Part shown: positions 1-17,957 of the stretch, piece after piece
Layout: each line of letters begins with the position of its first letter
Numbering within the stretch: the first letter of the stretch is position 1
From: a virus
Taxonomy: Duplodnaviria > Caudoviricetes
DNA: 58,216 nucleotides
IMG/VR virus record: IMGVR_UViG_3300043411_002890
Coordinates: 1-58,216 of that record
Reading direction: 5' to 3' (one strand)
Made by a program: the position numbers and the translations under genes
Notes under the pieces: generated by a model
The model's database searches: none
What the model saw: only the letters and a program-made list of their open reading frames with translations
What the model was told of the DNA's origin: nothing

Positions 1-556
1 AAAGATTGATGACACAATTTTTTAAAAATAAATCTGGATTTTCTTTTCTCCAATTTTCAAGCTGTTTACTTCTTTGTATCAAAATCTCTGGCCTACTAGA
101 TGTTTTTATAGCAGTTTTGGAAGCTAATTCTATATTATTTTCTTTAAATTTAGGATCTTTCCAAAGATTCGATAATAATTTTGATCTCCTTTTTCTTTCA
201 TTTTGATTATTTAATATGGTCTTAGAAACGTTAAGTTTCATTTTAGAAATTTTTTCTTCACACAAAGAAGGGTCTTCTCTTTTATACTTCGTGATCCAAT
301 TTTCTCTTCCTTTTTGAGCAGCGGATCTTTTTTCAAAAGAACTTGAAATTTTCCGTATTGGGTTTTTTTCATTTGGATGACTTGAATTATAATGATTTTT
401 TAATTCACTAAAATTAAGTTTGCATATATCACATTTTAAATAATCTTTTCCTTCAATTCCTGTAAGAACAATGCAATCTTTTTTATGTTTAACCTTTTTA
501 CAAAAGGTACACCGAGGAGCACGTTTTTCAGCTTTTTTTATTACTTTCTTATTCAT
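1..556 (-). CDS. Putative free-standing homing endonuclease, N-terminal part (zinc-finger DNA-binding region); runs off the left edge
   Basis: Not in the ORF track. ATG at 556 overlaps the dnaE-4 stop. My translation MNKKVIKKAEKRAPRCTFCKK...GIEGKDYLKCDICKLNFSELKNHYNSSH... is open to position 1, with CxxC and C2H2 motifs. It sits directly after a split-intein N-half; no nuclease domain is visible in the window. Confidence 0.6.
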   Translation of the reverse strand, partial: MNKKVIKKAEKRAPRCTFCKKVKHKKDCIVLTGIEGKDYLKCDICKLNFSELKNHYNSSHPNEKNPIRKISSSFEKRSAAQKGRENWITKYKREDPSLCEEKISKMKLNVSKTILNNQNERKRRSKLLSNLWKDPKFKENNIELASKTAIKTSSRPEILIQRSKQLENWRKENPDLFLKNCVINL

Positions 557-1811
557 TGACTATTTCTAGATTTTCCTTTATTATTTGTTTTATAGGCAAC
601 ATTCGTCCGTCTTTTACTCTAAATTTATGATCCATTGAGCATATTACTTCAGTTCCATTATCTAGTAAAAACCTAAAAACAGGTATTTTTCCATGATCAT
701 GAAGTTTTTTTACTTTTACAAAAATAGTTTGTTGTGTTTTTTCATCTCTTGATCTGACAAATTCACCTGGTTGAATATTTTTTATCATTTTAGTTGTTTT
801 ACGTATTCCATTTTTATTATATATTGGAATTTTAGTGTTTGATTTCAAACTTGCATTGAAAGAATACGCAACCAAAGCTTCCATTTTATCGAAGAATTCC
901 GAGGACTTACGTGGATCAAGGTTTGCAAAGGCTTTTGTTTTTTCAACAAATTCTTTTTTTAGTTTTTCTCTTTCTTTTGCTGCCTTCTCTTTGTTGTTGG
1001 TTTCTTTTTTTGTGAATGCTTTTCTAACAGAGTCGGTTTCATCCAGAGGCATCCCACAGAGTTTTGCATAGATCAACTGTAACTGTTCCTGGAATATTAA
1101 TAAACCACTTGTTGGTTTAAGAACATCTTCTAAAAGAGGGTGTTCGTATTGAATCTTGTCTGGGTTAGCACGATTATTAAGGAACAACTTATCAACTTTT
1201 AAGCCTAATGGTCCTGGGCGGTGAATGGACGTTGCAATTGCAATATCTCTAATTGAGACTGGCTTCATTTTTCTCATAAATTCTTGAGTATTTGGCTTAA
1301 CAAATTGAAATATTGAAAAGAAATTTCCGTTCCAAAAGACATGTTTATATACTTCAAGATCATCAAAGTTATTAACATCTGGTGATAGTGTTTTTTGAAA
1401 CCACTCATTTATCTGTTCAAAACTGGGATCTTTGATTCCGTGATGTTTTTTCAGGATCTTTCTCACCGTATTTTCAAACATTCTCAAGGTTCCTAATGCA
1501 AGGAAGTCAAACTTTAAGAATCCAAAATGTTCTAACATTCTAAAGTTTACTCCTTCTGTCCAAGGAGTTTGCAAACTCCTTTTTTCTCCTTTGCCGCCGA
1601 TTATCAGAGGCATATTCTGTTTTTCGATCGGTGAGTCCGTGAGCACCACGCCGCCAGCGTGACGCCCGCAATTTGAAATTAAACCTACATCCGTCAGGAT
1701 ATTAGGCTGTTCGTCAACAAATGCCCCAGGCGAGATATTATGGTGCAAGTCATAAACTTTACACGGCGTTTCTAACTTTTTTATTGAACTTATTTTTCTG
1801 TTTGTTACCAT
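549..1811 (-). CDS. dnaE: DNA polymerase III alpha subunit, fragment 4 (IntC 47 aa - extein 273 aa - IntN 100 aa)
   Basis: IntC ends VYDL...LISN; extein CGRHAGG...KFDFLALG...IHRPGPL...LIFQEQL...AYSFNA; IntN starts SLKSNTKI with block B SMDH. Confidence 0.93.
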   Translation of the reverse strand: MVTNRKISSIKKLETPCKVYDLHHNISPGAFVDEQPNILTDVGLISNCGRHAGGVVLTDSPIEKQNMPLIIGGKGEKRSLQTPWTEGVNFRMLEHFGFLKFDFLALGTLRMFENTVRKILKKHHGIKDPSFEQINEWFQKTLSPDVNNFDDLEVYKHVFWNGNFFSIFQFVKPNTQEFMRKMKPVSIRDIAIATSIHRPGPLGLKVDKLFLNNRANPDKIQYEHPLLEDVLKPTSGLLIFQEQLQLIYAKLCGMPLDETDSVRKAFTKKETNNKEKAAKEREKLKKEFVEKTKAFANLDPRKSSEFFDKMEALVAYSFNASLKSNTKIPIYNKNGIRKTTKMIKNIQPGEFVRSRDEKTQQTIFVKVKKLHDHGKIPVFRFLLDNGTEVICSMDHKFRVKDGRMLPIKQIIKENLEIVNE

Positions 1812-1826
1812 GTTCAGTGTCTTTTC

Positions 1827-2315
1827 TTAAACTAATCTGCAAGTGTTATTTGCTAAGGATACTTCATATGCTGTATCTGAGTTGGTGTCATCTATATTGA
1901 TATAAAGAATTTGATCTGTTTTCAATCTATTCGTGCTCAAATCAAAAACAATATTATTCATATAACGGACATTAGAAAAGTTGTCAAATGAAAACTTTGG
2001 AGTCAATTGTAAATCATCAACCATTAAAGAAGAAATATAAATTCGATTAGTTGTCAGTAATTTAAAATCTCTTCCGAAGTTCCTCCAAACTTCATCATTT
2101 TCATCAATTCCATTTTCAAAGAAAAATATTGGAAACGGCATAAAATCGTCTAGACAAATAAAAGTATTTAATTTTCTTACCCAAGAATCTTCTTTAATTT
2201 GTTTGATATAATCATCAAAAGACAATAGAAGAACATTTTTGTTTTTAATAATATACTCTTCTATAGCATAGAGAAGCTTAAAAAGCTCTTCTTGGTTTAG
2301 TTGAGTCATATCCAT
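1827..2315 (-). CDS. Hypothetical protein between dnaE fragments 3 and 4
   Basis: 162-aa ORF packed with neighbours; no nuclease motif recognised. Confidence 0.7.
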   Translation of the reverse strand: MDMTQLNQEELFKLLYAIEEYIIKNKNVLLLSFDDYIKQIKEDSWVRKLNTFICLDDFMPFPIFFFENGIDENDEVWRNFGRDFKLLTTNRIYISSLMVDDLQLTPKFSFDNFSNVRYMNNIVFDLSTNRLKTDQILYINIDDTNSDTAYEVSLANNTCRLV

Positions 2316-3496
2316 CCTATTAAGCTATCATCCTCGCATAGATCTTTTACTTGCTTCCAACCTTTGTCTGTTTGGACTAAGTGATCTTCAGTTAGTTTAA
2401 TGCTTTTACCATCTTTAAAAGTAATTTCATAGAGTTCTTTTTCGCCGTTTTCAACCTTGAAGAAATCAGCGTTAAATTTAATCTCCCCAGTTGTATCAAT
2501 ATAAGCAACCTTGTCTTTGTCTTCAGATATGTCTTTAAATTGTTTCCAACCGCTTTCAGTTAAGATTAATGTTTCTTCTGTAAAACAAGATTTTATTTGT
2601 TTAAACAAAATACGCAAACTTGATTCAAGTTGAGGATATTCTTCTAATAAAGCTTGAAAAGACGGAGAATTTTTTTCCGCACTCTCATAAGATAAAAACC
2701 ACACACCACGATCAAACCCATCCTGTTGTTTATCAGCATCAAGAGTCTCTTTTTCTATTTGTTGCGTTATAGGATTTATAATGTCAAATGGAATTTGATA
2801 AAGTCTTGCAAGGTCTTTTATCAAAGACTTAAGCTGCAACTGGTTATAGTTCGAAACAGGAAGCACAGATTCCTCGCCAAAATGCTCAGTTAATATTTTA
2901 ATTGCCTCTTCTCTGTCTGCACAATCACTATTGTGACTAACAATTTCAGAACCTTTTGAAGAATAAATAAGAAAATATGAATTTTCTACTGTTATATCGG
3001 TAACAGTGATTTTTTTTGTTTTTGGTAAAAATTTAACTATGTTATCTACAACTACATAAGATTGAGTTTTATTACCAAGAGGAGCTAATTCAATACCTTC
3101 TTTAAGATCTTGGACTTTAAGATCATTCCAATTTTTATTTGGAATTTTATGGTTACCAGTTGCAATAAAATATCCCATATCTTTAACTCGTACTTTATAC
3201 AAACATTCATTCTCTTTTAAAGCTCTTGTTTTCGAATACAATACACGTCGAGGGCAACCACACGAATCAATCACAAAATCCCCAGAATTTAATGAAGATA
3301 TTCTTTTTTTCCCATCAATACATTTTACTAATGTTGATGATAGCAAACAGTCTATATCAGGTAAAGAATTGTGAGTTAAATAAAACATTCCATTATGCTT
3401 GTCGCTAACGAAAAAAGTTTGGTCATTTTCAACTCCTATATCGATTAGTTTAATTGGGATCTCATGTTCTATTGTTTTTATTGTTTTTATCTTCAT
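2306..3496 (-). CDS. dnaE: DNA polymerase III alpha subunit, fragment 3 (IntC 43 aa - extein SLPDID - cis mini-intein 140 aa - extein 114 aa - IntN 93 aa)
   Basis: ...LTHN|SLPDID|CLLSSTLV...TGNH...VSHN|SDCADRE...LKSLIKDLAR...KQIKS|CFTEETLI...TEDH; splicing reconstitutes the PDIDSD catalytic motif. Confidence 0.93.
   Translation of the reverse strand: MKIKTIKTIEHEIPIKLIDIGVENDQTFFVSDKHNGMFYLTHNSLPDIDCLLSSTLVKCIDGKKRISSLNSGDFVIDSCGCPRRVLYSKTRALKENECLYKVRVKDMGYFIATGNHKIPNKNWNDLKVQDLKEGIELAPLGNKTQSYVVVDNIVKFLPKTKKITVTDITVENSYFLIYSSKGSEIVSHNSDCADREEAIKILTEHFGEESVLPVSNYNQLQLKSLIKDLARLYQIPFDIINPITQQIEKETLDADKQQDGFDRGVWFLSYESAEKNSPSFQALLEEYPQLESSLRILFKQIKSCFTEETLILTESGWKQFKDISEDKDKVAYIDTTGEIKFNADFFKVENGEKELYEITFKDGKSIKLTEDHLVQTDKGWKQVKDLCEDDSLIGWI
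2930..3349 (-). mobile_element. Cis mini-intein (140 aa) within the DnaE PDID|SD motif
   Basis: Cys1, block B TGNH, terminal HN followed by Ser. Confidence 0.88.
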
Positions 3497-4379
3497 ATTT
3501 GAAAACCAGCTCTTTTGTTTTTTTATAGTTTCTTTGTTCGAGATTTGGGATAATTTTCCAAATTTCTGCGAATTTTAAGCCTTGAATAAACTCTTTTTGA
3601 GTTATTGTTATAATATTAACATCTGAAGAAATAATGTCTTTTTTTGATAAATTTTTTGTCATCAAAATTTCAAAGTGTTTTCCTGTGTTTTCCACACCTT
3701 TTAATTCTATGAATAAACTTAATTCTGGTAAGAAAAAATCGGGCGTATATGCTCCATTTTCAGTTATAAATGTTTTTGTTTCATATTCATATTGAATATT
3801 AAAAAATTTAAGAAATCTAGCAAAATCAGCCTCAAGTGCGCTTTTAAAGTAAGTCTCAAATCCCAGATCAGTTCTATAACCTGTTCTTCCATTTAGATGA
3901 ATTTTAATCTTTCCATTAGATTGATCAATAAACTGACATTTTCTGCTGCAACGAACTATATGTCTATTCGATTTTTTATTTTGAAAGAATTTTTTACAGG
4001 TCACACATTCTTTTATTTCCCTATTGGAATTGTTAAAACAACTTCTAGAACAAAAAAAGCTGTTTATCCTACTTGGTTTTGTTTGATATATCTTAGTACA
4101 AAATAAACAATTTTTTGTTTTTAATTTTATTTGACTTTTATTTTTACAAGCTGTAGAGCAAAATAAACTATTTTTACATTTGTAAGAAATAAATTCTTGT
4201 TTACAAAATTTACAATTTTTGTTTATTTTGCCTTCTTTTTTCTTTTTATTATAATGTTCTTTACAATTTTTCGTACAAAATTGTTTTCTTAAACAGTTGT
4301 TGCTTCCACGTCTATTGTTTTCTGGTAGAATTATTGTAAACTCAGAATTACATTCTTTACAACATTTCAATAAACTCAT
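3462..4379 (-). CDS. Free-standing homing endonuclease: Cys-rich zinc-ribbon repeats plus C-terminal PD-(D/E)xK nuclease domain
   Basis: Repeated CxxC...(F)CSxxC units; FKSALEADFA...YEYE...YTPDFFLP...FIELKG; lies between IntN (dnaE-2) and IntC (dnaE-3) and overlaps both. Start 4379 preferred over 4397. Confidence 0.82.
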   Translation of the reverse strand: MSLLKCCKECNSEFTIILPENNRRGSNNCLRKQFCTKNCKEHYNKKKKEGKINKNCKFCKQEFISYKCKNSLFCSTACKNKSQIKLKTKNCLFCTKIYQTKPSRINSFFCSRSCFNNSNREIKECVTCKKFFQNKKSNRHIVRCSRKCQFIDQSNGKIKIHLNGRTGYRTDLGFETYFKSALEADFARFLKFFNIQYEYETKTFITENGAYTPDFFLPELSLFIELKGVENTGKHFEILMTKNLSKKDIISSDVNIITITQKEFIQGLKFAEIWKIIPNLEQRNYKKTKELVFKYEDKNNKNNRT

Positions 4380-4842
4380 CTGTGATTTCAATTTCATCTG
4401 CTCTTAATTCCTTTTTAATACCATCCCGAATAACGATCCATAAATGATTAGGACTACTTTTTAATGTAGTACCATTTTCAAGTTCAAAAACTAAAACTTT
4501 ATTATGATAGGATTCATGTTTGTGAATAACTGGTTTATAACTGTTTGTATGAGTATACACCATATCACCAACATTAATATTTTTTAATTGTTTGATCTCA
4601 TCTTTAGTTTTTATATAGGTATCTGGGTCCAAGCACATCTTCTTTTTACTTAAAAACCGTTCAAATAAAAGCCCATGTTTCACAGGATCTACTTGTGTTA
4701 TACCTGTTGCGTAACACACCAAAGAACCTGCGCCAGAGTTATGAACGGGTATTCCTTCTACGTTGTACGAAGACTTATTTTTGACTGACAAATCATACAC
4801 TTTGCCAGAGTAAGGTACTTCTTTTTTCGATTTTAGTTTCAT
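4357..4842 (-). CDS. dnaE: DNA polymerase III alpha subunit, fragment 2 (IntC 35 aa - extein 34 aa - IntN 92 aa)
   Basis: VYDLSV...VHN|SGAGSLVCYATGITQVDPVKHGLLFERFLSKKKM|CLDPDTYI...SPNH. Confidence 0.93.
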   Translation of the reverse strand: MKLKSKKEVPYSGKVYDLSVKNKSSYNVEGIPVHNSGAGSLVCYATGITQVDPVKHGLLFERFLSKKKMCLDPDTYIKTKDEIKQLKNINVGDMVYTHTNSYKPVIHKHESYHNKVLVFELENGTTLKSSPNHLWIVIRDGIKKELRADEIEITDEFIEML

Positions 4843-4849
4843 ATTTTCC

Positions 4850-5218
4850 TTATAGGAGCTTCAGATCTTTTGTTAGCGGGTCTATTTTTTCTGCGGCGTG
4901 CGGACCGACCGAGAGACAAGTTCTTGTAGGAACACCATTAAACTCAGTCAATCCCGAGTCGGTAATAAGATGTGTTGTTAAACCACTTGTTTTTGCCGCA
5001 TCGAACAAAGCAAGAAGTTCTGTTTCGCTCTCAACATAAACACAGATTTTTCTATGCCCAGAATCTAGCCATTCCTGTTCTTCTTGAGATAAAGCAAAAG
5101 AACCTTGTTTGTATTTTTCAATTAACCAAGCAGAACTTGCATGGGCTATTTGTGCAGCCAATTTACCTTTTCTTACATTAAGGTCTTTACGCCATACGAG
5201 TATTTGTTTTATTATCAT
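4850..5218 (-). CDS. pth2: Peptidyl-tRNA hydrolase, Pth2 family
   Basis: KQILVWRKDL...GKLAAQIAHA...KICV...ITDSGLTEF...T.TCLSVGP. Confidence 0.9.
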   Translation of the reverse strand: MIIKQILVWRKDLNVRKGKLAAQIAHASSAWLIEKYKQGSFALSQEEQEWLDSGHRKICVYVESETELLALFDAAKTSGLTTHLITDSGLTEFNGVPTRTCLSVGPHAAEKIDPLTKDLKLL

Positions 5219-5220
5219 TA

Positions 5221-5622
5221 CTAACTCCTAGTTTTTAGAACTAAATTTTTAGGTTTTTGGTTTGGACCAAAATCAGATACTATTTCAAACGATTCAACGT
5301 CATTGTCGCAAATTTTATGCGAAAGAAATAACCAATCTATTTTTTCTGTGTTAGCACAATACATTAGAACACGATTTCTTGATAAACATTGAATTGTTTT
5401 CGTAATCACACAGACATCATAATTTTGTCTATCAGTTAGAGTTTTAAAATGTATATATTTTAAATGAAAATTTGGATCTGATAAAGGAATCAAATGATCT
5501 GGAATTTTTTCATCTTTATAATTTTTTATAAAACTCTGAAAGACGTTAATTCTACTAGAATCTAGATAATCTATTTCAGATTTAAGTTTATTAATGATAG
5601 ACTGTTCATCTTCTTCTTTCAT
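5221..5622 (-). CDS. Hypothetical protein
   Basis: 133-aa ORF, ATGA overlap with thyA. Confidence 0.7.
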   Translation of the reverse strand: MKEEDEQSIINKLKSEIDYLDSSRINVFQSFIKNYKDEKIPDHLIPLSDPNFHLKYIHFKTLTDRQNYDVCVITKTIQCLSRNRVLMYCANTEKIDWLFLSHKICDNDVESFEIVSDFGPNQKPKNLVLKTRS

Positions 5623-6458
5623 ACTGCTATCTCTAGATCTGCTTTTAGTTTTTGGGGAGAGTTAAATCCTTCTATTGTAAAGTCTTCTAGTTTTATTTCA
5701 TAAAAACTTTTTGAATGATTTAGTTCAAGCACTGGGGATTTATCGAGTGGTTCTTTTAAGATTAGTTCGTTTGCCGCGTTTAAATGCCTGTCATAAATGT
5801 GCAAATTATGAACATAATGGCAAAATTTTCCTGGTTTATATCCGAGATCAGAACAAACCATAAGCAATAAAGCATAATACTGAGCTTTATTTATCCAATT
5901 GGCCATAATATAATCTGAACTTCTCTGAATTAACGTTAAGTCTAATATAAATTTCCCATCTAGTTTTCTGACATTCCAAATGGTTTCATAAGCGCAAGGA
6001 TGCAAACCATTTGTTTCCTGAAGATCAGACTCTTGATATAAATTCATTATATGTCTTCTACTAAAGGGATCTTGCTTCAAACTATGTAATAGTTTATTCA
6101 TTAAATCCCATTTTCTGACGGTTGCACCATAACGCTGACCAATTGTGCCGTTTCCAATATCCCATTCGTCCCACCAATTAATCCCAGTTTGCTTCGCCGC
6201 GTCGAGCGAGGCGGTCTGCTGTTGGTATATCCACATTACCTCTTTAATCCCAGTTTTAACTGCCGTTGGTCGCAAGGTTGTGAATGGAAATTCTCCATTT
6301 AATAAGTCATATTCTTCAAATATTTGGTTTATGAATATACTTTTTGCAGGTGTGCCGTCTTTATATTTTGGTCTTGGATTTTCGTCTTTATATCCTTTTG
6401 TTGTTAACTTATATAAGTTTTGTTTGTAGTATTGGTCAGCTTTATTCATTTTTTTCAT
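5619..6458 (-). CDS. thyA: Thymidylate synthase
   Basis: WWDEW...IGQRYG...SRRHI...LHPCAY...QRSSD...N...HNLHIYDRH. Confidence 0.95.
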   Translation of the reverse strand: MKKMNKADQYYKQNLYKLTTKGYKDENPRPKYKDGTPAKSIFINQIFEEYDLLNGEFPFTTLRPTAVKTGIKEVMWIYQQQTASLDAAKQTGINWWDEWDIGNGTIGQRYGATVRKWDLMNKLLHSLKQDPFSRRHIMNLYQESDLQETNGLHPCAYETIWNVRKLDGKFILDLTLIQRSSDYIMANWINKAQYYALLLMVCSDLGYKPGKFCHYVHNLHIYDRHLNAANELILKEPLDKSPVLELNHSKSFYEIKLEDFTIEGFNSPQKLKADLEIAV

Positions 6459-7105
6459 TCTTCCTTTTCTTCAAAATAGAAACCGTAAAGAGAATCACAG
6501 TCTATTTTCTTTGAATTTTTTAATAGTCCGAAACTTAACAATCTATGAGTTCCGTCAATTATTTTCATAGTTCCGTTTTTTGTTTTACAAACTACTATTC
6601 TATTTGTTGCAACCCAAATATTTTTAGAATTCAAAACATTGTGAGAAGACACTTTTGAGAGTTTTGGTAAAACTGTGTCATTTGCCGTAAGCCAAGAATT
6701 TAAGGAATCGACTCTTTTTTCTATATCGTTTATTGCATCAACAGACTTTTCTATATTATCTTTTGATTTTCTTACTATCGTAAAACCTTTTTTCTTTTTA
6801 ACAGACAGTTCGTAGCTATCCAAGAACTGTTCAAAACTTACAGAAGTATAACAAGACTCGTAACTTAATAACTCTTCAAAACTAAAATTGGCAATAACAA
6901 CAGAACTATCTTTAAGATAGTCAGAAATATATTGCCTCTTTGAATTGAAAATAACTTCTCTAAGTTTATTTTCTAAAGAAGAAGAAAAATCTGGTTTTAA
7001 TATTAAATCCTGATTCAATAATCTAATGTTGTTAGCCAATGCATGATCTCCATCAAGCATAGACCATATTAAAAACTCTTTGCTGGTTGCTAGTTTTACT
7101 TTCAT
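6455..7105 (-). CDS. Hypothetical protein with possible ParB/Srx-like domain
   Basis: IVVC...MKIIDGTHRL matches the ParB N-terminal DGxHR signature. Confidence 0.5.
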   Translation of the reverse strand: MKVKLATSKEFLIWSMLDGDHALANNIRLLNQDLILKPDFSSSLENKLREVIFNSKRQYISDYLKDSSVVIANFSFEELLSYESCYTSVSFEQFLDSYELSVKKKKGFTIVRKSKDNIEKSVDAINDIEKRVDSLNSWLTANDTVLPKLSKVSSHNVLNSKNIWVATNRIVVCKTKNGTMKIIDGTHRLLSFGLLKNSKKIDCDSLYGFYFEEKEE

Positions 7106-9815: not shown

Positions 9816-11537
9816 TTACTTCTGGTTTTTTGTCGAGTCAAGTGTCAATCGTGCAATCACACTCATAACCATTACATTTCCTAGTGTCCACATTGCTGAA
9901 GATAGCCACCCAAGAGGAAATGCGTGCATTCCGCTTAGAAATGTACCCAACAAGAACGCTGCTGTTCCTATTGTAAATCCACCAATAGGTGCTCTAAGTT
10001 TTTTAGATGAATAGAATGTGGCTATTAGCACAAGAGGTAGAAAAGCACTTCCAAGAGGTAAGAATTGGTGAATAAAACTATTTGTATAGAGTGTTAGTTC
10101 ACCTGGGGGCACTGTTAGAAACTTGGGCAGCGTAAACGGAAGCCACATTGTAAGCAATGATAGGCCGAAAGCCGCATACATTGCAGGCAATACCCATTTT
10201 TTATGATCTTCGATCTTACCACCTTTTTTGGTTATTGCTCCCAAAACAGAGGCAAGAATAAGAATCAATGATAAACCACGCCAAAGTGTTTTCTTTGTTT
10301 CAATGCTGGAAACTGCATGTTTTGCGGACAAAACACCAGAGCCATAAAGTTCTGGGTTTCTATCTCCATGTTCAGGTCTTTGTGCTGAAGACCTTAGAAT
10401 TGACTCTACTGAATCAGGATTTGTTACGCCCATTGAAACAATCAAACCTGCAACTCCTGCAACATGCGGAGCTGCCATTGAAGTTCCCGACCATGCAACA
10501 AATTGCTCGCAGCCGTTTCGACCATTATCACAAATAGTTTGTTGTGGAATGTTAACTCCAGGAGCAGCAATCGCAATCTCTTGCCCACGAGAAGAAAAGT
10601 CTGCGATTGTATCGCCTGGGCCAATTGCACTAACTGCAAAAGCTCCTGGTTCATTTGCTGGGGATTCCACTCTATGTCCGTTGTTTCCTGCGGCACAGAT
10701 AACAACAGCTCCCTTATTTCTTGCATAAGCGACCGCTTCCGCCATAACACGGTTTCTTGGGCCGCCACCAAGAGAAAGATTGATAACATTTGCACCTTGA
10801 TCTGCCGCGAATCTGATTCCTTCCGCAACGTCTGCCAAAGTGCCAGAGCCACGAGCATCAAGAACTTTGACGGGAATGATTGTGGCGCAGTGAGCAATAC
10901 CAGCAAACCCGACTCCGTTATCTGTTGCCTGCGCAATTGTTCCAGCAACATGCGAACCGTGACCTTGGTCATCATTTGCATGATTGTTGTTTGAAACAAA
11001 GTTCCACCCTTCCACACAGTTTGTGGTATTCAAATCAGAAAGTCTCTGAAACCTTCCGTGAGTTTCACAGGCAACACCTGTATCAACAACCGCGATTCTA
11101 ACGCCTCTCCCGCATGTTTGATTCCATGCAGATTCAACTCCAATTCTTCTCAATCCCCATTGTTCAGAAAATCTTGGATCGTTTGGTGTACGAAACATTC
11201 GCATTTGATGGTTAGGCTCAGCACCTTGAACATTCGATTCATTTCTTAATGAAGAAATGATCTGTTCGCCGCGTGAATGTTCAGCTCTGAAAGTATAAAT
11301 TCTATCCTCACCAACCATTTGTGGAGTATTTGCCGTCAACGCAATCCCATATCTTCGAGATGTTTCTTGCACTGTTGATTCCGAAACAGAATCGGAAAAA
11401 TCAACAACGAATTCTTCTTGACCAGTATTTGTTTGCGATTCGTCATTGAATGTTGCATGCTGTGCTCTTGCGTTTGTTGACGCAAGAATAACAGATAGCA
11501 TCACCGATGTTGTTAGATAGGATCTTACGTTTCTCAT
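9816..11537 (-). CDS. Secreted/membrane-anchored subtilisin-family (S8) serine protease
   Basis: Signal-peptide-like N-terminus, propeptide, triad VVDTG / HGSHVAG / GTSMAAPHVAG, oxyanion AAGN, several C-terminal hydrophobic helices. Confidence 0.93.
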   Translation of the reverse strand: MRNVRSYLTTSVMLSVILASTNARAQHATFNDESQTNTGQEEFVVDFSDSVSESTVQETSRRYGIALTANTPQMVGEDRIYTFRAEHSRGEQIISSLRNESNVQGAEPNHQMRMFRTPNDPRFSEQWGLRRIGVESAWNQTCGRGVRIAVVDTGVACETHGRFQRLSDLNTTNCVEGWNFVSNNNHANDDQGHGSHVAGTIAQATDNGVGFAGIAHCATIIPVKVLDARGSGTLADVAEGIRFAADQGANVINLSLGGGPRNRVMAEAVAYARNKGAVVICAAGNNGHRVESPANEPGAFAVSAIGPGDTIADFSSRGQEIAIAAPGVNIPQQTICDNGRNGCEQFVAWSGTSMAAPHVAGVAGLIVSMGVTNPDSVESILRSSAQRPEHGDRNPELYGSGVLSAKHAVSSIETKKTLWRGLSLILILASVLGAITKKGGKIEDHKKWVLPAMYAAFGLSLLTMWLPFTLPKFLTVPPGELTLYTNSFIHQFLPLGSAFLPLVLIATFYSSKKLRAPIGGFTIGTAAFLLGTFLSGMHAFPLGWLSSAMWTLGNVMVMSVIARLTLDSTKNQK

Positions 11538-11597
11538 TTTTTTCCTTTGTTTCCTTTGTTTCCTGTTCTGGTTTCGTCTCTCGTGCCTTGGACTGAC

Positions 11598-11625
11598 ACT
11601 ATATGCACGCGCAGGCGGCTGTCAA
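11598..11625 (-). promoter_or_regulatory. sigma70-like promoter with GC-rich spacer, upstream of the S8 protease
   Basis: TTGACA-gccgcctgcgcgtgca(16)-TATAGT in an intergenic gap, followed by GGAAACAAA repeats and an AGGA RBS. Confidence 0.7.
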
Positions 11626-11632
11626 CGGCCGT

Positions 11633-12028
11633 CTATGGCATGTTTACGATTATACAAGGCGGCTCTAAAACTTTAAGGGATGTATATTTTTTGAATGCTG
11701 AAAACTGACTTTTTGTCATTAAAATAAACTCATAAACATATGCTACGTTATGCAAACGATCTGCATATTGAAAATAAAAAACATATAAAGATCTCTTTGA
11801 GATTACACTAAACTTAGTTCTAAGTTTTCTTGGAGACAAGAAACCCATGAGATTGATTACAATGCTGGTATCATTTTTTGTAATCAAGAAAAAATCTTCA
11901 ACAAGAGTTTTTTCGATTTTATCTAAAACAACTAAATTTAAACCAATTCGTTTTTTATTAATATTTCCCAGTTCGAAAGATGAAGAATCTATTAATTTAT
12001 CTATGATAAGTTTATTCTTCTTTTTCAT
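11633..12028 (-). CDS. Hypothetical protein, paralog family B
   Basis: GFLSPRKL...LEPPCIIVNM. Confidence 0.75.
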   Translation of the reverse strand: MKKKNKLIIDKLIDSSSFELGNINKKRIGLNLVVLDKIEKTLVEDFFLITKNDTSIVINLMGFLSPRKLRTKFSVISKRSLYVFYFQYADRLHNVAYVYEFILMTKSQFSAFKKYTSLKVLEPPCIIVNMP

Positions 12029-12479
12029 GACTCTCCATATTCAAAATTATTTTTGGTGGCTCTAAAACCTCAAGTCCACAAATTTTATGAAACTGGTTAA
12101 AATCTTTTTCAGATATAAAAAAATAATCAAAATCATTATGAATTTCAAATTCACGATTAGCCTTTAGACAAGAACCAATAAACTTTGACATAAATTGAAA
12201 TACTATAAGAGGTTTTCTTGATCGTATGCCAAAACATGTTTGAAGTTTTCGTGGAGAAAAAAATCCAACAGTATCTATGATTAAAGATGAATCAGTGACA
12301 ATTGATCCAAAGATAAGGTTGTAATTCTGTGCTTTATTTGTGTAAAACATTCCGACTGAAAAACGATTAGGTTGCAGAGGATAAGGATCAATATTAAAAC
12401 TAATATTATGTTTCTTAATAAGAAGATCAATATCTTGTTCGTGGCTTAATATATAAGCATTATTCTTTTTTGATTTCAT
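12012..12479 (-). CDS. Hypothetical protein, paralog family B
   Basis: GFFSPRKL...LEPPKIILNM. Confidence 0.75.
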   Translation of the reverse strand: MKSKKNNAYILSHEQDIDLLIKKHNISFNIDPYPLQPNRFSVGMFYTNKAQNYNLIFGSIVTDSSLIIDTVGFFSPRKLQTCFGIRSRKPLIVFQFMSKFIGSCLKANREFEIHNDFDYFFISEKDFNQFHKICGLEVLEPPKIILNMESHEKEE

Positions 12480-12883
12480 TTTAAATGAACTATTACATGA
12501 GGTATATCAATAATATACTTGAAATATGATTTTTGCCTATTAAACTGTTCGATTGTCATTAAACAATGACATTGACTTTTATCTTCTCTAATTAATAAAC
12601 AACTAACAAGAGGAGCAAAATTTCTTATTTTATAAGAATATCGATTTATTCTAATTCTTTTTCTTCTTCTTGAAATCTTCTTTGAAGATTTCTTCTTTCT
12701 AAAATATGAAGAAGATATATGAAGTTTAAGATATTTTTCCGATCTTATGAGGAAGATGACTTGTAATCCATAATTTAATATATCTGAAAATAGAAATTGT
12801 TCTTTTTCTTCTAACAAAGAAATCTGTTTTTCTTCATCAAGAACTTCAATATATGTATTCTGAATACATTTTTCACTTTTCAT
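12476..12883 (-). CDS. Hypothetical protein, probable family B
   Basis: Basic central patch; C-terminal IDIPHVIVHL. Confidence 0.65.
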   Translation of the reverse strand: MKSEKCIQNTYIEVLDEEKQISLLEEKEQFLFSDILNYGLQVIFLIRSEKYLKLHISSSYFRKKKSSKKISRRRKRIRINRYSYKIRNFAPLVSCLLIREDKSQCHCLMTIEQFNRQKSYFKYIIDIPHVIVHLK

Positions 12884-12885
12884 TT

Positions 12886-13122
12886 TTAGAGATTTTTTTC
12901 AAACTTATACATATTTTTTATATACGCATGAAAAAATTTGCCTTTTGATTCTGAAGATTTAAACTGTTCCCATGTATCTTCGGTAACACCCTTATATTCA
13001 TAAATTTTACCATTTGTTTTAAACGTTAATTTAAGTCTATGGTAAAGAGAATTGTATTCTGCATGGGTTATTAACTTACTTGATTCTGTATCTATTTGGT
13101 CTGTTGTTATTGAATCTATCAT
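12886..13122 (-). CDS. KTSC-domain protein
   Basis: SKLITHAEYN....LKLTFK.NG.IYEY.GV....W..F..SESKGKFFHAYIK. Confidence 0.88.
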   Translation of the reverse strand: MIDSITTDQIDTESSKLITHAEYNSLYHRLKLTFKTNGKIYEYKGVTEDTWEQFKSSESKGKFFHAYIKNMYKFEKNL

Positions 13123-13131
13123 TTTTTATCC

Positions 13132-13359
13132 TTAGTTTGTATTAACTATTACTTTTGGGAACTCTAGGAGTTTAATATTGAACTCTCTAAAATACGGAAT
13201 TAAATTTTGTAAATATGATTTCGTTATATACAATGGAGAGTTTATTTGATCATCAAAAGATATTAAATATTGTGTGTTTGGATCTATCTTATATAGTGAA
13301 AATTCACTAATAATTTGATATTTTGACCATAATCTTCTTGGCGAGATCTTTTCAATCAC
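13132..13359 (-). CDS. Family B paralog, apparently N-terminally truncated (possible pseudogene)
   Basis: ISPRRL...LEFPKVIVN; frame stays open upstream to a TGA near 13475, beside T/A homopolymers. Confidence 0.55.
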   Translation of the reverse strand: MIEKISPRRLWSKYQIISEFSLYKIDPNTQYLISFDDQINSPLYITKSYLQNLIPYFREFNIKLLEFPKVIVNTN

Positions 13360-13574
13360 AATAGATTGATTACAATCAAGGCGAATTAATTGTGAAGATA
13401 CTACTTGCTTCCTTGTCTCAATGAATTCACTTGTTAATTTTGATTGTTTATAAACAGTCTTTTTTCTAAAATTTCAAAAAATAAAGCATTTTTTTGTTTA
13501 AATATTCTATTTTTTTCTCAAACTCTCGAATAGTTTGGTCTATGTAAATTAATATTTAAATCCTTTCAAATAGG

Positions 13575-13608
13575 AAAGCCCTTGAAGGGTTTAATCTTCA
13601 AGGGCTTT
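13575..13608 (-). terminator. Hairpin, probable intrinsic terminator
   Basis: AAAGCCCTTGAAG-8 nt-CTTCAAGGGCTTT perfect 13-bp stem just downstream of the gene ending at 13627. Confidence 0.7.
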
Positions 13609-13626
13609 ATTTGGTTTAGATTCGAT

Positions 13627-14040
13627 TCAAACCCGTTTTGAGGCCATTGTCTTCACATATGAATGGAAGAATGTACCAGCGGATTTACGTCTACGCCACG
13701 ACATTGCCATCTCTTTTGAGAAACTCTCATAAAGATACCGATTTCCGTCTTTGAAAAAGACGGTCATGTTACCAGTTTGATGATTGGCTTTGTCATTGGC
13801 TACCCAACGAAAGCTCTTGATGAAAGATGAATCTTCAAATTTATGCTCAATCATAAATTGAGTATTTGAAGGTGTACGTTTTGTAACAGGTGTTGACTTA
13901 ACCTTTGTAGGTTTAGTTGTTACCCTTGTTGAATTTTTCTTTGTTGATTTTTTAGGAGCTGATGTTTTTGTCATTTTTCTTGTTGATTTTCCTGTCGAGT
14001 TACTCTTAGATGATCGTTTCGCGGTTTTTGTCTTTGTCAT
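13627..14040 (-). CDS. KTSC-domain protein with Lys/Thr/Ser-rich basic N-terminal tail
   Basis: MTKTKTAKRSSK...; DSSFIKSFRW...MTVFFKDGNRYLYE...SAGTFFHSYVK. Start moved to ATG 14040 because the longer track ORF runs through a promoter and the upstream gene. Confidence 0.82.
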   Translation of the reverse strand: MTKTKTAKRSSKSNSTGKSTRKMTKTSAPKKSTKKNSTRVTTKPTKVKSTPVTKRTPSNTQFMIEHKFEDSSFIKSFRWVANDKANHQTGNMTVFFKDGNRYLYESFSKEMAMSWRRRKSAGTFFHSYVKTMASKRV

Positions 14041-14047
14041 GCACCGT

Positions 14048-14075
14048 AGTATAAGAGCGCTGCGGGCACCGTCAA
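14048..14075 (-). promoter_or_regulatory. sigma70-like promoter with GC-rich spacer; probably gives a leaderless mRNA
   Basis: TTGACG-gtgcccgcagcgctct(16)-TATACT, 7 nt before ATG 14040. Confidence 0.7.
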
Positions 14076-14092
14076 GGGGCGGCGTGTCGTTT

Positions 14093-14326
14093 TCAGTCCT
14101 CGTTGTGCTTGAGTTTGTATTGAGCAAATAATTGCTGAACAATTCTTAACTCATCAAAAGTCAAACCAATACTATCTTGAGTGCCCATGATGTTAGCAAA
14201 ATAAACTTCAGAATACCTTTGTCTATCATATCCAAAATCATCGAACAAAACTACGGTTCTTGCTCTGATAACAAGACCATTTTTTTCTACCAAAGTTTCT
14301 TCACGAATTAGTTTTTGTTTCAACAT
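14093..14326 (-). CDS. Hypothetical protein
   Basis: 77-aa ORF in operon context. Confidence 0.6.
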   Translation of the reverse strand: MLKQKLIREETLVEKNGLVIRARTVVLFDDFGYDRQRYSEVYFANIMGTQDSIGLTFDELRIVQQLFAQYKLKHNED

Positions 14327-14654
14327 TTTCTATACTTTCACCCTTTTCAAGAATCATTTTGTTTTTTTCATCTAAAATTTGTTTAATACCTAAAAAAGAA
14401 TATCCATTTACATCAAGATAAGCATCTAATCTGCCTTCTTCTGGAGGAAGTAGGCTGCTATTTGCTATTCGACTTAGCTTATCAATTACTCTTATGATGA
14501 ACATTACGTCAGAATATTGTTCTTCGACAATTCCATCTGGGAAGAGGAGTTTTAGGTGCTCCGTTGTCTTATTAAAACTTCCGCCATAAGCGCGATTCTT
14601 TTTCTCCAAGAGTTCGGCTTGGGCGACTGCAATTTCATGAAATGTTTTCTTCAT
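14301..14654 (-). CDS. Nucleotide modification associated domain 1 (DUF1599-like) protein
   Basis: LLEKKNRAYGGSF...IRVIDKLSRI.N...DAYLDVNGYS. Confidence 0.7.
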   Translation of the reverse strand: MKKTFHEIAVAQAELLEKKNRAYGGSFNKTTEHLKLLFPDGIVEEQYSDVMFIIRVIDKLSRIANSSLLPPEEGRLDAYLDVNGYSFLGIKQILDEKNKMILEKGESIENVETKTNS

Positions 14655-14698
14655 GGAGAAGAGTTATAACATCTCAATTTTAAGAAGGCAATAGTCTT

Positions 14699-14965
14699 TT
14701 ATTTTTCAGTGGGAAGATTGATATACACAACAACTATAGTATATTTGCCGCGCATGGACTGCGAAGACTCAAGATAAGAAACAATAGCAATCTCAGCCTC
14801 TTCCCAAGATTCATACAATGGATCAGTTTTCCCAGATATTGTAACAGACTCGAAGTATTCGTTGACAATCCTAAACATCTTATGAGGCTTAAGTTTGAAA
14901 TCATGAGAGCTAATTCTTCTTGGAGATAAATCATTTCCAAGAAGAATATCTTTTTCGTTACTCAT
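14699..14965 (-). CDS. Hypothetical protein
   Basis: 88-aa ORF overlapping the upstream stop. Confidence 0.65.
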   Translation of the reverse strand: MSNEKDILLGNDLSPRRISSHDFKLKPHKMFRIVNEYFESVTISGKTDPLYESWEEAEIAIVSYLESSQSMRGKYTIVVVYINLPTEK

Positions 14966-15359
14966 TAAATTTCTTAAAATTAATTTTTATAGAAGGCATT
15001 CCCTTAATTAATTTTTTATTTTCCAAGAAATTTTGACAAGATGAGAAAACATAAAAATATTGTTTTGTATATTTGTTTTGATACATGATTGTTGGAAAAT
15101 AAAAATTGATTATATCTTTTTCATTCTTATATTTTCCCATATCATTTATTTTGTATTGTGTCTTAAAGAACAACCTTACCGCCCTTTTAGAAATGACTCT
15201 AATAGGTTCAAGTTCTTTTATTTCATCTTCTGTGAGAGATACAGCATTAAAATAACACTCTTCATCATATTCATCTTGAATGATCTCAAAAAACATGAAA
15301 TATGTTGTTATTTTGCCCACTGTTGTTATACAATTTTTTATTAGTTGTCTAGTGAGCAT
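14958..15359 (-). CDS. Hypothetical protein, distant family B-like
   Basis: GAGG RBS before ATG 15359; ISKRAV... C-terminal KGMPSIKINF. Confidence 0.65.
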   Translation of the reverse strand: MLTRQLIKNCITTVGKITTYFMFFEIIQDEYDEECYFNAVSLTEDEIKELEPIRVISKRAVRLFFKTQYKINDMGKYKNEKDIINFYFPTIMYQNKYTKQYFYVFSSCQNFLENKKLIKGMPSIKINFKKFNE

Positions 15360-15392
15360 TACCACCTCACTATTAACTACGATACAAATATT

Positions 15393-15707
15393 TTAGTCTT
15401 TTGGATTTGATCTCATTATCGATATTATGTGTCTAACAAGTTTTTCTGGCTCTTGAATTAGCCTTGGGTTTTCTTTTAAATTATGAGCTATTATTTGTAC
15501 TAACGAATCAACTTCAAAATATATATCAAGAGAAATTAAAGGAACCATAATTGTTACAAAAATATTTAAAAGTGTTTCCTGAGCTTCTGAATTGGAAGCT
15601 AAAACAAGATTGTTTAACTCATCAATTTTAGCGTTAAAAATTTCTGTATGATAATCAGTTAGATCATCATATAAACCTTCATTCTCTAAAGCTTTTTTAT
15701 CTATCAT
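15393..15707 (-). CDS. Hypothetical protein
   Basis: ATG 15707 (MIDKK); the longer track start lies inside the 46-bp IS stub. Confidence 0.7.
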   Translation of the reverse strand: MIDKKALENEGLYDDLTDYHTEIFNAKIDELNNLVLASNSEAQETLLNIFVTIMVPLISLDIYFEVDSLVQIIAHNLKENPRLIQEPEKLVRHIISIMRSNPKD

Positions 15708-15721
15708 TGTTTTTGACTTAT

Positions 15722-15767
15722 TTCTTGTGAGCAGAAAACTCACAGACTCGTCCTGTGAGTAGTTCAC
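15722..15767 (+). mobile_element. 46-bp palindromic non-autonomous IS200/IS605 derivative (left end fused to right-end tail)
   Basis: TTAT|TTCTTGTGAGCAGAAAACTCACAGACTCGTCCTGTGAG-TAGTTCAC; first 38 nt nearly identical to 57258 onward, last 8 nt identical to the end of the 49729-49927 element. Confidence 0.85.
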
Positions 15768-16099
15768 ATTGGTATAACGTTATCTTTTACTAAGATGATT
15801 ATCTCTTTTAACAATTCAGCATCAGTAAATTTTTTACCAGATAAAGAATCTACAAGTTTTAGTATTTCTGTTATCTCAGGAATATTACCAATGATTTTTA
15901 TGGTTGCAATAATTACATCTTTTGGCGTTTGAAAATCTATCTTTCTTTTCGTAACCCATGCTGAATATTTGAAATTATGAATTTTAAGACAGTTTTTACT
16001 GCAACAAGTTATCGTTGCAGACCTATCGAGAAAACGCTGTTCTTCAGATGGTATAAATAAAAAACCACAGTTAGCACAGAAAATTTGATAAAAAACCAT
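15764..16099 (-). CDS. Hypothetical protein with zinc-binding motifs
   Basis: CANCG...CCSKNC; its stop codon is supplied by the IS stub. Confidence 0.7.
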   Translation of the reverse strand: MVFYQIFCANCGFLFIPSEEQRFLDRSATITCCSKNCLKIHNFKYSAWVTKRKIDFQTPKDVIIATIKIIGNIPEITEILKLVDSLSGKKFTDAELLKEIIILVKDNVIPM

Positions 16100-16142
16100 G
16101 GTTTAATTCCCAATAATAACTACTCAAAAAATATTACTAAAA

Positions 16143-17957
16143 CTAAAATGCTACTTTTTCTAACTCATCATTTTCAATAAGTTCTTCAGCAGTAACCCAA
16201 CCTCGATTTTTTGTTAAAATCTTGTGGTCTTTAGTACATGACACAATGGTACCATCATCAAATTCAAGTTCCAAAATGTTTTCATCAATATCAAATTCCC
16301 ACAACTTCAAGACCTCTTGAACACTTCCATCGTGCGTATAGACCCAATCTCCCTCTTTAATATCTTTGATCATTTTTTTAGATTTGTGAAGCGGCATACA
16401 AACATTAGTGTTGGGAACAAAACAGCCTCTACCAGCACCCAGCAGCATTTTCTTTCCTATTAAAGCAAGACTTTGTGAGCATGTCAAGAAGTACCTTGGA
16501 AGGTTTAAGTGTCGTATTACGTCTAATTCTTCCATTGCTCGATCTATATATTTTTGGTCATTGAGTTTATTTTTTGCTTCAAGTCCTGCAATAGTAAGAT
16601 CAACAAGTTCATTAAAACTTATTTCATCTTCTGTTAACCCAGTTGCTTTAAGAGTATCGAGTTTTGATTGATCAATAAGTTTATTGAGACTTGGAAGTTT
16701 TGGGCTTTTATCAAAAGTTATTTTTTTATCAATTGCATCATGTGCGATATCATGCGTTCGCTCAATAGCATCACAAATTAATTCACTATACTCTTCTGGG
16801 TAAAATGACGGGAATTCAGAAACACAATATTTTTGATACGCTCCCCACATCTGATCCGCATTTTTTGGATACAGTTCATAATCTAATTCTTCAATCTGTT
16901 GCGGGATAATTGACGGGTCAATTTCTTTTAATTTCTCCGTTGTCATTTTAGACATTGTTTTGTAAATTATACGTTCTTTCCAATGATCAGGATTAGGGTA
17001 ATGACAATCCGCTGTTGCGACTAACTTGACTCCCATTTGTTTCGATAGTTCAATTAAATGATAGTTCAATATCTGTTGATATGGAAGCCTATTGAATTGA
17101 AGTTCTAAAAAGAAATTATCTTTTCCATGAAAAGAATCAACAAATCTCTCGGTTAACTCCTTAAGCTCTTTCTGAATTAGATCAAATTTATAATTTTTAA
17201 GTTTATCTATTGAATTTACATATTGATCTGAGTTTAAGTTTAGATCAATATAATGCTTTATCAGCACCTTATTATGCAAGTTTCCAAGACAAGCGCTTGT
17301 TCCGATAATGTTTCCATTAGTATTTGCTTTCAACATTTCAAAATCAATTCTTGGAAAGAAATAAAAACCATCCCGATATGAAAGAGAAGTCAGTTTAAAC
17401 AAACTGTTTAATCCAGTAGTGTTTTTTGCTAGTAATACCAAATGACTTCTGGTTCTTAACGGATTTGCTGATTTATATGACTTTGTTTCTTCTTCATTCT
17501 CAACAACGGTTGTTTCTTCATTGCCCTCTTTAGATTCTAAAATAACAACATTTTCAGTATGTTCATTCAACTCTTCAATCCGTTTTTCTTCTATTGGATC
17601 TGAAACAATAATAAGATTTTCATCTTTAGAAGATTTTTTAGTTGCCTTTTTTTGTTTTTTCAGCTCTTCTTTTTCATTTCCTATTTGTTTTCGCAGCTCT
17701 TCCCACTCTTTTATACTAGGAATGAAATATGCTTCGATTCCGTGGATTACTTTGAACGGTGAGCCACTTTTTTCGAGCCCCTCATAATATTTATATGAAT
17801 GTGAAAATGCATTCATGTTACCGTGATCGGTTATCGCGTGTGCGGTCAATCCGTTTTGTTCGGCAAACTTAAAATGATCTGGAGGTAATCCAATTGCATC
17901 ACCTATACTTCCGTTCGAGTGCGCGTGGAGATTTACATATTTTGTTGGTTTTTTCAT
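16143..17957 (-). CDS. dnaE: DNA polymerase III alpha subunit, fragment 1 (PHP domain extein 511 aa - IntN 93 aa)
   Basis: YVNLHAHS...AITDHG...GIEAY...HLVLLAKN...SACL...ATADCHY...GAGRG|CFVPNTNV...TKDH...GWVTAEEL. Confidence 0.95.
   Translation of the reverse strand: MKKPTKYVNLHAHSNGSIGDAIGLPPDHFKFAEQNGLTAHAITDHGNMNAFSHSYKYYEGLEKSGSPFKVIHGIEAYFIPSIKEWEELRKQIGNEKEELKKQKKATKKSSKDENLIIVSDPIEEKRIEELNEHTENVVILESKEGNEETTVVENEEETKSYKSANPLRTRSHLVLLAKNTTGLNSLFKLTSLSYRDGFYFFPRIDFEMLKANTNGNIIGTSACLGNLHNKVLIKHYIDLNLNSDQYVNSIDKLKNYKFDLIQKELKELTERFVDSFHGKDNFFLELQFNRLPYQQILNYHLIELSKQMGVKLVATADCHYPNPDHWKERIIYKTMSKMTTEKLKEIDPSIIPQQIEELDYELYPKNADQMWGAYQKYCVSEFPSFYPEEYSELICDAIERTHDIAHDAIDKKITFDKSPKLPSLNKLIDQSKLDTLKATGLTEDEISFNELVDLTIAGLEAKNKLNDQKYIDRAMEELDVIRHLNLPRYFLTCSQSLALIGKKMLLGAGRGCFVPNTNVCMPLHKSKKMIKDIKEGDWVYTHDGSVQEVLKLWEFDIDENILELEFDDGTIVSCTKDHKILTKNRGWVTAEELIENDELEKVAF

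Follow-up and report, generated by a model that had tools for sequence, protein, structure and literature searches.

A phage DnaE encoded in pieces, with four different split inteins and one contiguous intein as its putative joints

The window analysed here is the entire IMG/VR record IMGVR_UViG_3300043411_002890 of a tailed phage (58,216 bp, linear, G+C ~31%, CheckV completeness 13%). Its gene for the replicative DNA polymerase III (Pol III) alpha subunit, DnaE, is spread over several open reading frames (ORFs) that begin or end with the halves of inteins. We describe the pieces of this gene, the inteins that border them, the relatives in which the same sites are empty, contiguous or split, and the way in which one polymerase might be assembled from them.

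Organization of the dnaE locus

An initial annotation, made from the sequence alone, had read DnaE motifs in the correct order across four ORFs (16143-17957, 4357-4842, 2306-3496 and 549-1811; here ORF1 to ORF4). All four are present on the minus strand as claimed, and alignment to hidden Markov models gave collinear matches to NCBIfam NF004226 (1146 positions) at 4-365 for ORF1, 364-399 for ORF2, 411-469 for ORF3 and 505-752 for ORF4. By BLASTP the same ORFs tile the uninterrupted 1211-aa DnaE of a relative, G003, at 4-473, 474-512, 514-627 and 609-895. The Pfam domains also follow in order, with PHP first, then DNA_pol3_alpha (positions 3-66, 56-111, 111-170 and 205-260) and then the finger domain. 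As the gene is in pieces, none of the single ORFs reached the cut-off for a full-length DnaE.

The lengths given in that annotation for the intein halves were exact, with N-terminal halves (IntN) of 93, 92, 93 and 100 aa and C-terminal halves (IntC) of 35, 43 and 47 aa. The translations contain the junctions GAGRG/SGAGS, KKKM/SLPDID/SD, KQIKS/CGRHAGG and FNA/ (a slash marks the position of an intein), and the exteins sum to the 938 aa reported (511+34+6+114+273). That four different split inteins are present was borne out, but the count was incomplete, for a contiguous mini-intein of 140 aa also stands at SLPDID/SD (P0003 residues 50-189). The gene therefore holds five inteins, named a to e, of which four are split (Table 1). 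The sequence thus supports a DnaE that this phage would make as at least five polypeptides by means of four different split inteins.

Compared with the Taq Pol III alpha structure 2hpi, intein a lies in GRG/S, b and c flank SxPDID (Taq 460-465), d stands before RHAGG and e lies in FNKSH. Judged by this alignment, all five inteins sit in conserved motifs of the active site, where inteins are usually found. The PDID of the six-residue extein SLPDID presumably contributes the two catalytic aspartates of the palm.

Table 1. Pieces of DnaE, intein halves, intervening ORFs and further intein-like inserts of the window
Feature	Position	Strand	Evidence
DnaE extein 1 (511 aa), PHP and start of palm, ends GAGRG	16425..17957	(-)	Pfam PHP E 1.9e-25; G003 4-473
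IntN-a (93 aa), starts CFVPNT, block B TKDH	16146..16424	(-)	nearest solved NrdJ-1 8ubs
IntC-a (35 aa), ends VHN, then S+1	4738..4842	(-)	intein_Cterm E 2.1e-4, above cut-off
DnaE extein 2 (34 aa), SGAGS...FLSKKKM	4636..4737	(-)	DNA_pol3_alpha 56-111, E 3e-13; G003 474-507
IntN-b (92 aa), starts CLDPDT, block B SPNH	4360..4635	(-)	nearest solved gp41-1 6riz; 74% identical to G002 allele
HE-b (P0006, 311 aa), free-standing nuclease gene	3462..4397	(-)	PHROG nuclease matches
IntC-b (43 aa), ends LTHN, then S+1	3368..3496	(-)	translation; allele comparison
Micro-extein SLPDID (6 aa)	3350..3367	(-)	aligns to Taq Pol III alpha S460-D465 (PDID = 462-465), 2hpi
Contiguous (cis) mini-intein c (140 aa), CLLSST...IVSHN, then S+1	2930..3349	(-)	Pfam Hint_2 E 2.1e-4, below cut-off
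DnaE extein 3 (114 aa), SDCADREE...KQIKS	2588..2929	(-)	G003 514-627; NF004226 411-469
IntN-d (93 aa), starts CFTEET, block B TEDH	2309..2587	(-)	intein_Nterm E 2.7e-11, above cut-off
ORF-d (P0007, 162 aa), at homing-endonuclease position	1827..2315	(-)	no recognisable family
IntC-d (47 aa), ends LISN, then C+1	1671..1811	(-)	translation; allele comparison
DnaE extein 4 (273 aa), end of palm and finger domain, ends YSFNA	852..1670	(-)	DNA_pol3_finger E 1.8e-29; NF004226 505-752
IntN-e (100 aa), starts with Ser (SLKSNT), block B SMDH	552..851	(-)	DnaE-intein relative; 87% identical to G001 allele
HE-e (P0005), first 185 codons, truncated at window's end	2..556	(-)	DUF559/Vsr-like by full-length homologue
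Intein-like insert in NrdA	20345-20764	(-)	
Intein-like insert in NrdB (~residues 115-408)	~22300-23179	(-)	
Intein-like insert in RecA	27622-27984	(-)	
Intein-like insert in PhoH	43970-44149	(-)	

Intein halves and their catalytic residues

In the translations, the first residue of inteins a to e is Cys, Cys, Cys, Cys and Ser, respectively, and each N-half carries a Thr/Ser-x-x-His motif, which we take to be block B (TGNH in c; the others are in Table 1). The C-termini read VHN/S (a), THN/S (b), SHN/S (c) and ISN/C (d), and that of e, seen only in the relative G001, reads TSN/S. Within the window the N-halves share 13-30% and the C-halves 30-37% identity, and the corresponding alleles of G001 and G002 are 60-87% identical to those of the window (77-80% for IntC-a). 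By these comparisons no two of the five inteins are related.

Solved inteins were the best Protein Data Bank matches of all N-halves, including those that score below curated cut-offs. The nearest was NrdJ-1 (8ubs, E 2.4e-7) for IntN-a, gp41-1 (6riz, E 1.6e-4) for IntN-b and the Spl DnaX mini-intein (7cfv, E 1.1e-4) for IntN-d. IntN-e was nearest to the DnaE inteins 7qil and 2keq (Npu), at E ~1e-8 and collinear from position 1, and the IntC-e of G001 matched 4lx3_B (E 1.4e-3). Above their profile cut-offs were IntN-d (intein_Nterm, 44.3 vs 24.5 bits) and also IntC-a and IntC-b (intein_Cterm, 21.4 and 18.3 vs 15.6 bits), and ORF2 reached the cut-off on Pfam Intein_splicing (35.8 vs 35.8 bits). 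Net charges of IntN/IntC were -9/+4 in pair a and -9/0 in pair d, where the first 20 residues of IntC-d carry +4. In pair e the polarity is reversed, with +10 for IntN and -8 for the IntC of G001. Owing to the low identity, the different nearest relatives and these charges, cross-reaction between the pairs is unlikely, and we infer that they are mutually orthogonal.

The intein halves might instead serve as non-covalent dimerisation modules only, so that a five-piece complex would be active without any peptide bond being formed. Split-intein halves bind tightly before splicing, which fits this explanation, as does the lack of a penultimate His in d and e. A precedent for non-covalent assembly is the NrdA of phage Aeh1, which is reported to be split by a homing endonuclease and joined via interaction domains (PMC3045599). 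Against it stands the conservation of residues that only the chemistry requires: the nucleophile at position 1, TxxH, the terminal Asn and the +1 nucleophile are retained in all alleles of the relatives, though the intein sequences differ by 13-40%. Moreover, the junctions fall in buried motifs (GRG/S, PDID/SD, /RHAGG and FNx/SH) at which a HINT insert of ~130 aa should not be tolerated. We consider it improbable that the pieces are held together by dimerisation alone, and the conserved residues favour a DnaE joined by splicing.

The fifth piece

An IntC followed by Ser-His had been predicted beyond the left edge of the window, where it would complete the sequence that breaks off at FNA. This prediction was realized in the closest relative, G001, whose homologue of ORF4 is 89% identical; for the phage of the window itself, the piece lies outside the record. 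The G001 counterpart of the ORF cut by the left end of the window is a gene of 330 aa, directly followed by a 390-aa ORF that consists of a 37-aa C-half ending in TSN and then SHAISYS... This ORF aligns to G003 893-1211 and includes the helix-hairpin-helix domain (HHH_6). The fifth piece recurs on two further metagenome contigs (L099 and L100), with proteins 100% identical to those of G001. A scan of metagenome contigs did not find the fifth piece of the window's own phage and gave only the G001-like lineage and more distant loci. In run X2, which comes from another study, an independent contig runs 9.4 kb beyond the left end of the window.

Empty sites and verification of the breaks

Empty sites in relatives mark identical junctions to the residue, which excludes chance as their origin. 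All five sites are empty in G003, site e in G002 (YSFNMSHAISY) and site b in G001 (KKKAGLPDID), and P0023 is contiguous at b and c. Site c, empty in G003 and P0023, is split in G001.

Errors in the assembly had been named as one way in which the stops and starts might have arisen. Of the words sampled from 549-4842, half or more were present in each of 14 runs, 13 of them from six studies other than the possible source. In X2, one contig corresponds to window 1-7350 with nine substitutions and no gap and a second to 9131-18100 with two substitutions, none of which hits a start or stop codon of the pieces. No indel was found in any piece in the four runs aligned. An independent assembly reproduces all starts and stops, and assembly error is excluded.

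A related explanation holds that the breaks are artefacts of assembly or sequencing, or are bridged in RNA by group I introns, frameshifting or read-through. In huge phages, group I introns with endonuclease genes inside them often break up genes (PMC12880540). Rfam families gave no match (0) in the whole window, leaving no group I intron alternative, and group I introns and other RNA elements were rejected as the cause of the breaks. Beyond this, intein halves flank every break at the protein level, independent assemblies agree without an indel, and the same stops and starts recur in three diverged genomes. The chance that the breaks are artefacts or are bridged in RNA appears negligible.

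Selection on the pieces

The ratio of nonsynonymous to synonymous substitution rates (dN/dS) was 0.03-0.19 in the exteins and 0.07-0.43 in the intein parts where dS could be computed, dS being saturated in many comparisons and the ratios hence rough. No frame is disrupted in three diverged genomes. These values indicate that the inteins are under purifying selection.

They also bear on the view that DnaE is a dead gene in the course of destruction by homing endonucleases, with the phage using the polymerase of its host or another enzyme. As only 13% of the genome is in the record, another polymerase could lie elsewhere, and a Prim-Pol is encoded at 36159-38288. However, a dead gene would fit poorly with the low extein ratios and the intact frames, nor would it explain why the same architecture is kept in relatives from 53 to 89% identity and why identical ORFs occur in samples of several studies. 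In the complete genome of the relative G004, DnaE occurs only as a fractured gene of four ORFs, and no PolB and no other Pol III alpha were found there, only a sub-threshold PolA-like ORF of 343 aa. That the fractured DnaE is dead is therefore very unlikely, and it is better regarded as a polymerase kept in pieces.

Related loci

A pattern search of viral contigs gave 288 matches, of which 242 encode relatives. The best 80 were kept and their ORFs mapped, together with those of the window, onto the G003 DnaE, with L027, L060 and L046 corrected by eye. The loci are partly non-independent (L018 and L019 have the same ORFs and coordinates, and likewise L039-L041), and some run into the end of their contig. 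Of the 81 loci, 31 have one or more split junctions: four in two of them (the window and L005, which is G001), three in another four (L006, L018, L019 and L054), two in seven and one in 18. The remaining 50 have none. Altogether, seven split sites were located, near G003 positions 196, 258, 473, 507, 513, 627 and 895.

Contiguous alleles are found for intein a in L057 (130 aa), for b in L018 and L019 (178 aa) and for c in the window and L006. IntN-a is identical to the N part of the L057 allele at 44 of 91 positions, and the break of the window's intein a falls within a 6-residue loop of that allele. The layout of ORF2, in which IntC-a, 34 aa of extein and IntN-b follow each other, was recovered in seven protein clusters from several sources, including the window's own, at 53-79% identity (the search gave 16 clusters with E <= 0.001 among 66 candidates). 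One ORF2 relative had been labelled "intein/homing endonuclease" by its source.

Relatives also carry an intein c that is split between its last two splicing blocks, with an N-half of ~150-167 aa and a C-half of 18-20 aa. It was seen in G001 (L005:8171-9559), in P0021, P0022, P0024 and P0025, and at L046:7101-11773; besides L046, five protein clusters show it. Complex prediction for the G001-type pair scored 0.83 vs 0.07 for the best control, with contacts agreeing to at least 85% between runs and a predicted local distance difference test score (pLDDT) of the partner of at least 59. Solved complexes attained the mark used in 58 of 80 cases, mismatched pairs in 2 of 110. The prediction supports pairing of the two halves, and the pass may reflect their likeness to solved inteins. 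To our knowledge, a split between the last two blocks is an engineered site (S11) and not a natural one.

Other observations concern sites in the relatives. At site e of G004 (L019:9962-12512) and L018, a different N-half of 88 aa that starts with Cys follows the extein FNQ, and the C-half is e-like; the intein there may have been replaced or be a hybrid. Two split sites in the PHP and N-terminal part, unused in the window, lie at ~196 (L054, L032, L046 and L051) and ~258 (L035 and L038), and their C-halves end in HN/C. L054 combines three split sites, none of which is a or e. An insert of 107 aa near G003 position 1064 (L084, L089 and L091) was rejected as an intein as it has no intein termini.

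ORFs between the intein halves

The nuclease gene between the halves of b, HE-b, encodes a protein with a Cys-rich N-terminal half and a C-terminal half of the PD-(D/E)xK, T7 endonuclease I-like type. Its PHROG matches are endonuclease and Holliday-junction-resolvase families (E 1.3e-10 to 2.2e-6). The copy in G002 shares 69% identity with it and matches Pfam Phage_endo_I at E 1e-4, below the cut-off. Between the halves of e, the truncated HE-e is 83% identical to P0008 of G001. The match of P0008 to Pfam DUF559 is not significant (E 0.054), and its nearest clusters in the ESM Atlas are viral DUF559/NUMOD3 proteins (score 0.94). HE-e is thus a probable homing endonuclease (HE) lying between the e halves.

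The ORF between the d halves, P0007, gave no match to Pfam, NCBIfam or PHROG; the Atlas returned unnamed clusters and a poor model (pLDDT 0.50). Its homologues are only four close clusters (83-100% identity) among 28 candidates. The ORFs at this position in three genomes (window 1827-2315, L005:9550-10008 and L006:9565-9984) measure 162, 152 and 139 aa and have no detectable relation to each other; the d halves that flank them are 57-73% identical across the three genomes. The halves of intein a are separated by 11.3 kb with thymidylate synthase, DHFR, PTH2, subtilase and other genes but no endonuclease gene. Counted from the first ATG, neighbouring ORFs overlap by 41, 35, 10 or 8 nt or lie 15 nt apart.

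Codons that encode the same residue were compared between the window (intein e and HE-e at 2-851) and G001 (L005:10960-11810). Identical codons made up 83% in IntN-e (n=88) and 80% in HE-e (n=154); extein 4 (n=255) gave only 60% and IntC-d (n=31) 48%. The cassette of intein e and its endonuclease looks to have been shared more recently than the host gene, as homing predicts.

Proposed assembly of DnaE

In the mechanism we propose, five unrelated inteins would have entered the only DnaE gene of the phage, at as many active-site motifs. As four of these are split, the gene would be expressed as five polypeptides: E1-IntNa, IntCa-E2-IntNb, IntCb-SLPDID-(cis c)-E3-IntNd, IntCd-E4-IntNe and IntCe-E5, the last lying beyond the left edge (E1 to E5 denote the exteins). 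Each N-half would pair with its own C-half and complete the HINT fold. Class-1 splicing would then proceed by an acyl shift at Cys1 or Ser1, transesterification to the +1 Ser or Cys and cyclisation of the terminal Asn, with intein c splicing in cis, and would leave a single DnaE of ~1291 aa as final product. The breaks themselves may be by-products of homing, given the nuclease genes between the halves at b and e and the orphan ORF at d.

We hold it very probable that DnaE is assembled by protein splicing from five polypeptides. The sequences show the anatomy and collinearity of the pieces, their catalytic residues, the conservation of the alleles and the selection on them, as well as the agreement of independent assemblies and the fifth piece of a relative; the splicing itself, the absence of cross-reaction between pairs and the order of reactions are what we infer. 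Somewhat more guardedly, we favour a natural five-fragment assembly line, in which four mutually orthogonal split inteins of four lineages (NrdJ-1-, gp41-1-, DnaX- and Npu DnaE-like) would link the parts of an essential polymerase in a fixed order. One of the four would be a charge-reversed cousin of the fast Npu DnaE intein that works without cysteine (Ser1/Ser+1) and has shifted by four residues within the same motif. In this proposal, the phage family would provide, with contiguous and split alleles at three sites and an F/G split with an 18-aa C-half, both an evolutionary series and a toolbox.

Several points weigh against this picture. IntN-a, IntN-b and IntN-e stay below curated cut-offs, with 23.8 bits for a and 17.8 for e on Intein_splicing vs 35.8. 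In inteins d and e, Ser and not His precedes the terminal Asn, and e begins with Ser. Only six residues separate the two HINT domains of ORF3, which could hinder one of the reactions. The charge complementarity of pair b is slight (-4/-1), and orthogonality has low sequence identity and different nearest relatives as its sole basis. The record ends inside HE-e and so does not include the fifth piece of this phage, whose existence is deduced from G001 and from the X2 contig that extends past the left end. Finally, X15, the one RNA-labelled run in which a good part of the stretch is present, is flagged as probably DNA, and all runs are contigs.

Comparison with known systems

Fractured genes with split inteins have precedents. 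In Dassa et al. 2009 (PMC2677866), replication genes of phage-like environmental genomes are fractured at an intein, with both halves on one strand and a free-standing endonuclease gene, GIY-YIG or Vsr-like, between them. The three DnaE loci described there use three different sites, none of them the cyanobacterial one, and DnaE-1 has the C-part of an additional intein; the sites listed in Table S1 and Figure S1 of that work may include some identical to a-e. DnaE genes fractured at a single split intein were thus already known in 2009, and the initial annotation had named single split inteins in cyanobacterial DnaE and in fractured phage genes as established. Each of the published loci has one split intein on a short contig, whereas the DnaE of the window has four split inteins and one contiguous. 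An endonuclease gene stands between the halves at b and probably at e; at d its place is taken by an ORF of no recognisable family, and at a it is absent. HE-b, as a T7 endonuclease I-like PD-(D/E)xK protein, is unlike the GIY-YIG and Vsr-like enzymes of that work, and HE-e is of the same Vsr-like kind. The spacer of 27-51 nt with a hairpin described there before the endonuclease ORF contrasts with the 8-41-nt overlaps or 15-nt distance of the window, in which hairpins were not searched for. The novelty therefore is the multiplicity of splits in one gene and not the principle of the fractured gene. A search of full-text literature, which leaves subscription journals mostly uncovered, gave no description of a natural gene that has two or more split inteins.

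Intein e resembles the cyanobacterial DnaE inteins (Ssp and Npu) in its host protein, in the homology of both halves and in their lengths (100+37 vs ~102+36 aa). It differs in the opposite charge polarity and in the adjacency of its halves, which flank an endonuclease gene. In Npu the native junction reads AEY/CFNK (PMC3759424); intein e, at YSFNA/SH, lies four residues downstream and has Ser1/Ser+1 in place of Cys/Cys. Site a shares with cyanobacterial DnaE the arrangement as two genes far apart. The dnaE of Trichodesmium, studied by Liu and Yang in 2003, reportedly holds one split intein and contiguous ones and is made as two polypeptides. A review (PMC2874743) lists for Trichodesmium erythraeum a split dnaE with multiple inteins and, from Liu et al. 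2003, a ribonucleotide reductase gene with four. The likeness is in having several inteins in one replication gene, a split one plus further ones; the window differs in its five polypeptides.

Orthogonal split inteins have been put to such use by design: as Pinto et al. 2020 report, engineered sets ligate more than two fragments in defined order (PMC7090010). Those sets were assembled by humans from inteins of unrelated genes, whereas the phage seems to apply a natural set of this kind to a single essential protein.

Implications

If the proposed assembly is correct, the locus shows to what degree an essential gene can be fragmented and yet kept, with five polypeptides and five splicing reactions for each polymerase, and with the two catalytic aspartates placed on a six-residue extein between two inteins. 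The origin of split inteins becomes directly testable, as at three sites one phage family has both contiguous and split forms of the same intein and the cassette of intein e and its endonuclease bears signs of recent transfer. For protein engineering, the four pairs are a candidate set of naturally co-evolved orthogonal inteins, one of which is related to Npu DnaE but uses Ser/Ser. A warning for phage genomics is that gene callers will annotate such polymerases as intein or hypothetical fragments.

Genome context

The window appears to be a 58-kb fragment of an uncultivated tailed phage of ~360-390 kb. Its origin from a very large phage follows from the complete relative G004 (the locus L019), which has 390,884 bp, terminal repeats and a CheckV completeness of 100% and is 66% identical in the finger-domain piece. 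Among deposited phage genomes (700 matching records), the best match of ORF4 was below 31% identity, so it has no cultured relative there. Nearly every gene in the left 45 kb of the window is on the minus strand. The window encodes both ribonucleotide reductase subunits, a DnaB-like helicase, RecA, Prim-Pol, PhoH, thymidylate synthase, DHFR and subtilase, and no tRNAs (0) were found in it.

Intein-like inserts are also present in NrdA (734 aa), NrdB (645 aa), RecA (555 aa) and PhoH (820 aa), each within one ORF (Table 1); with the five of DnaE, the intein signals in the window number nine. At 7102-9260, six small ORFs (102-148 aa) stand in tandem, two of which give weak DUF6745 matches below the cut-off. 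Metagenome contigs stack over this segment to ~10x the depth of its neighbourhood, with many alternative joints, and it looks like a variable array of paralogous genes.

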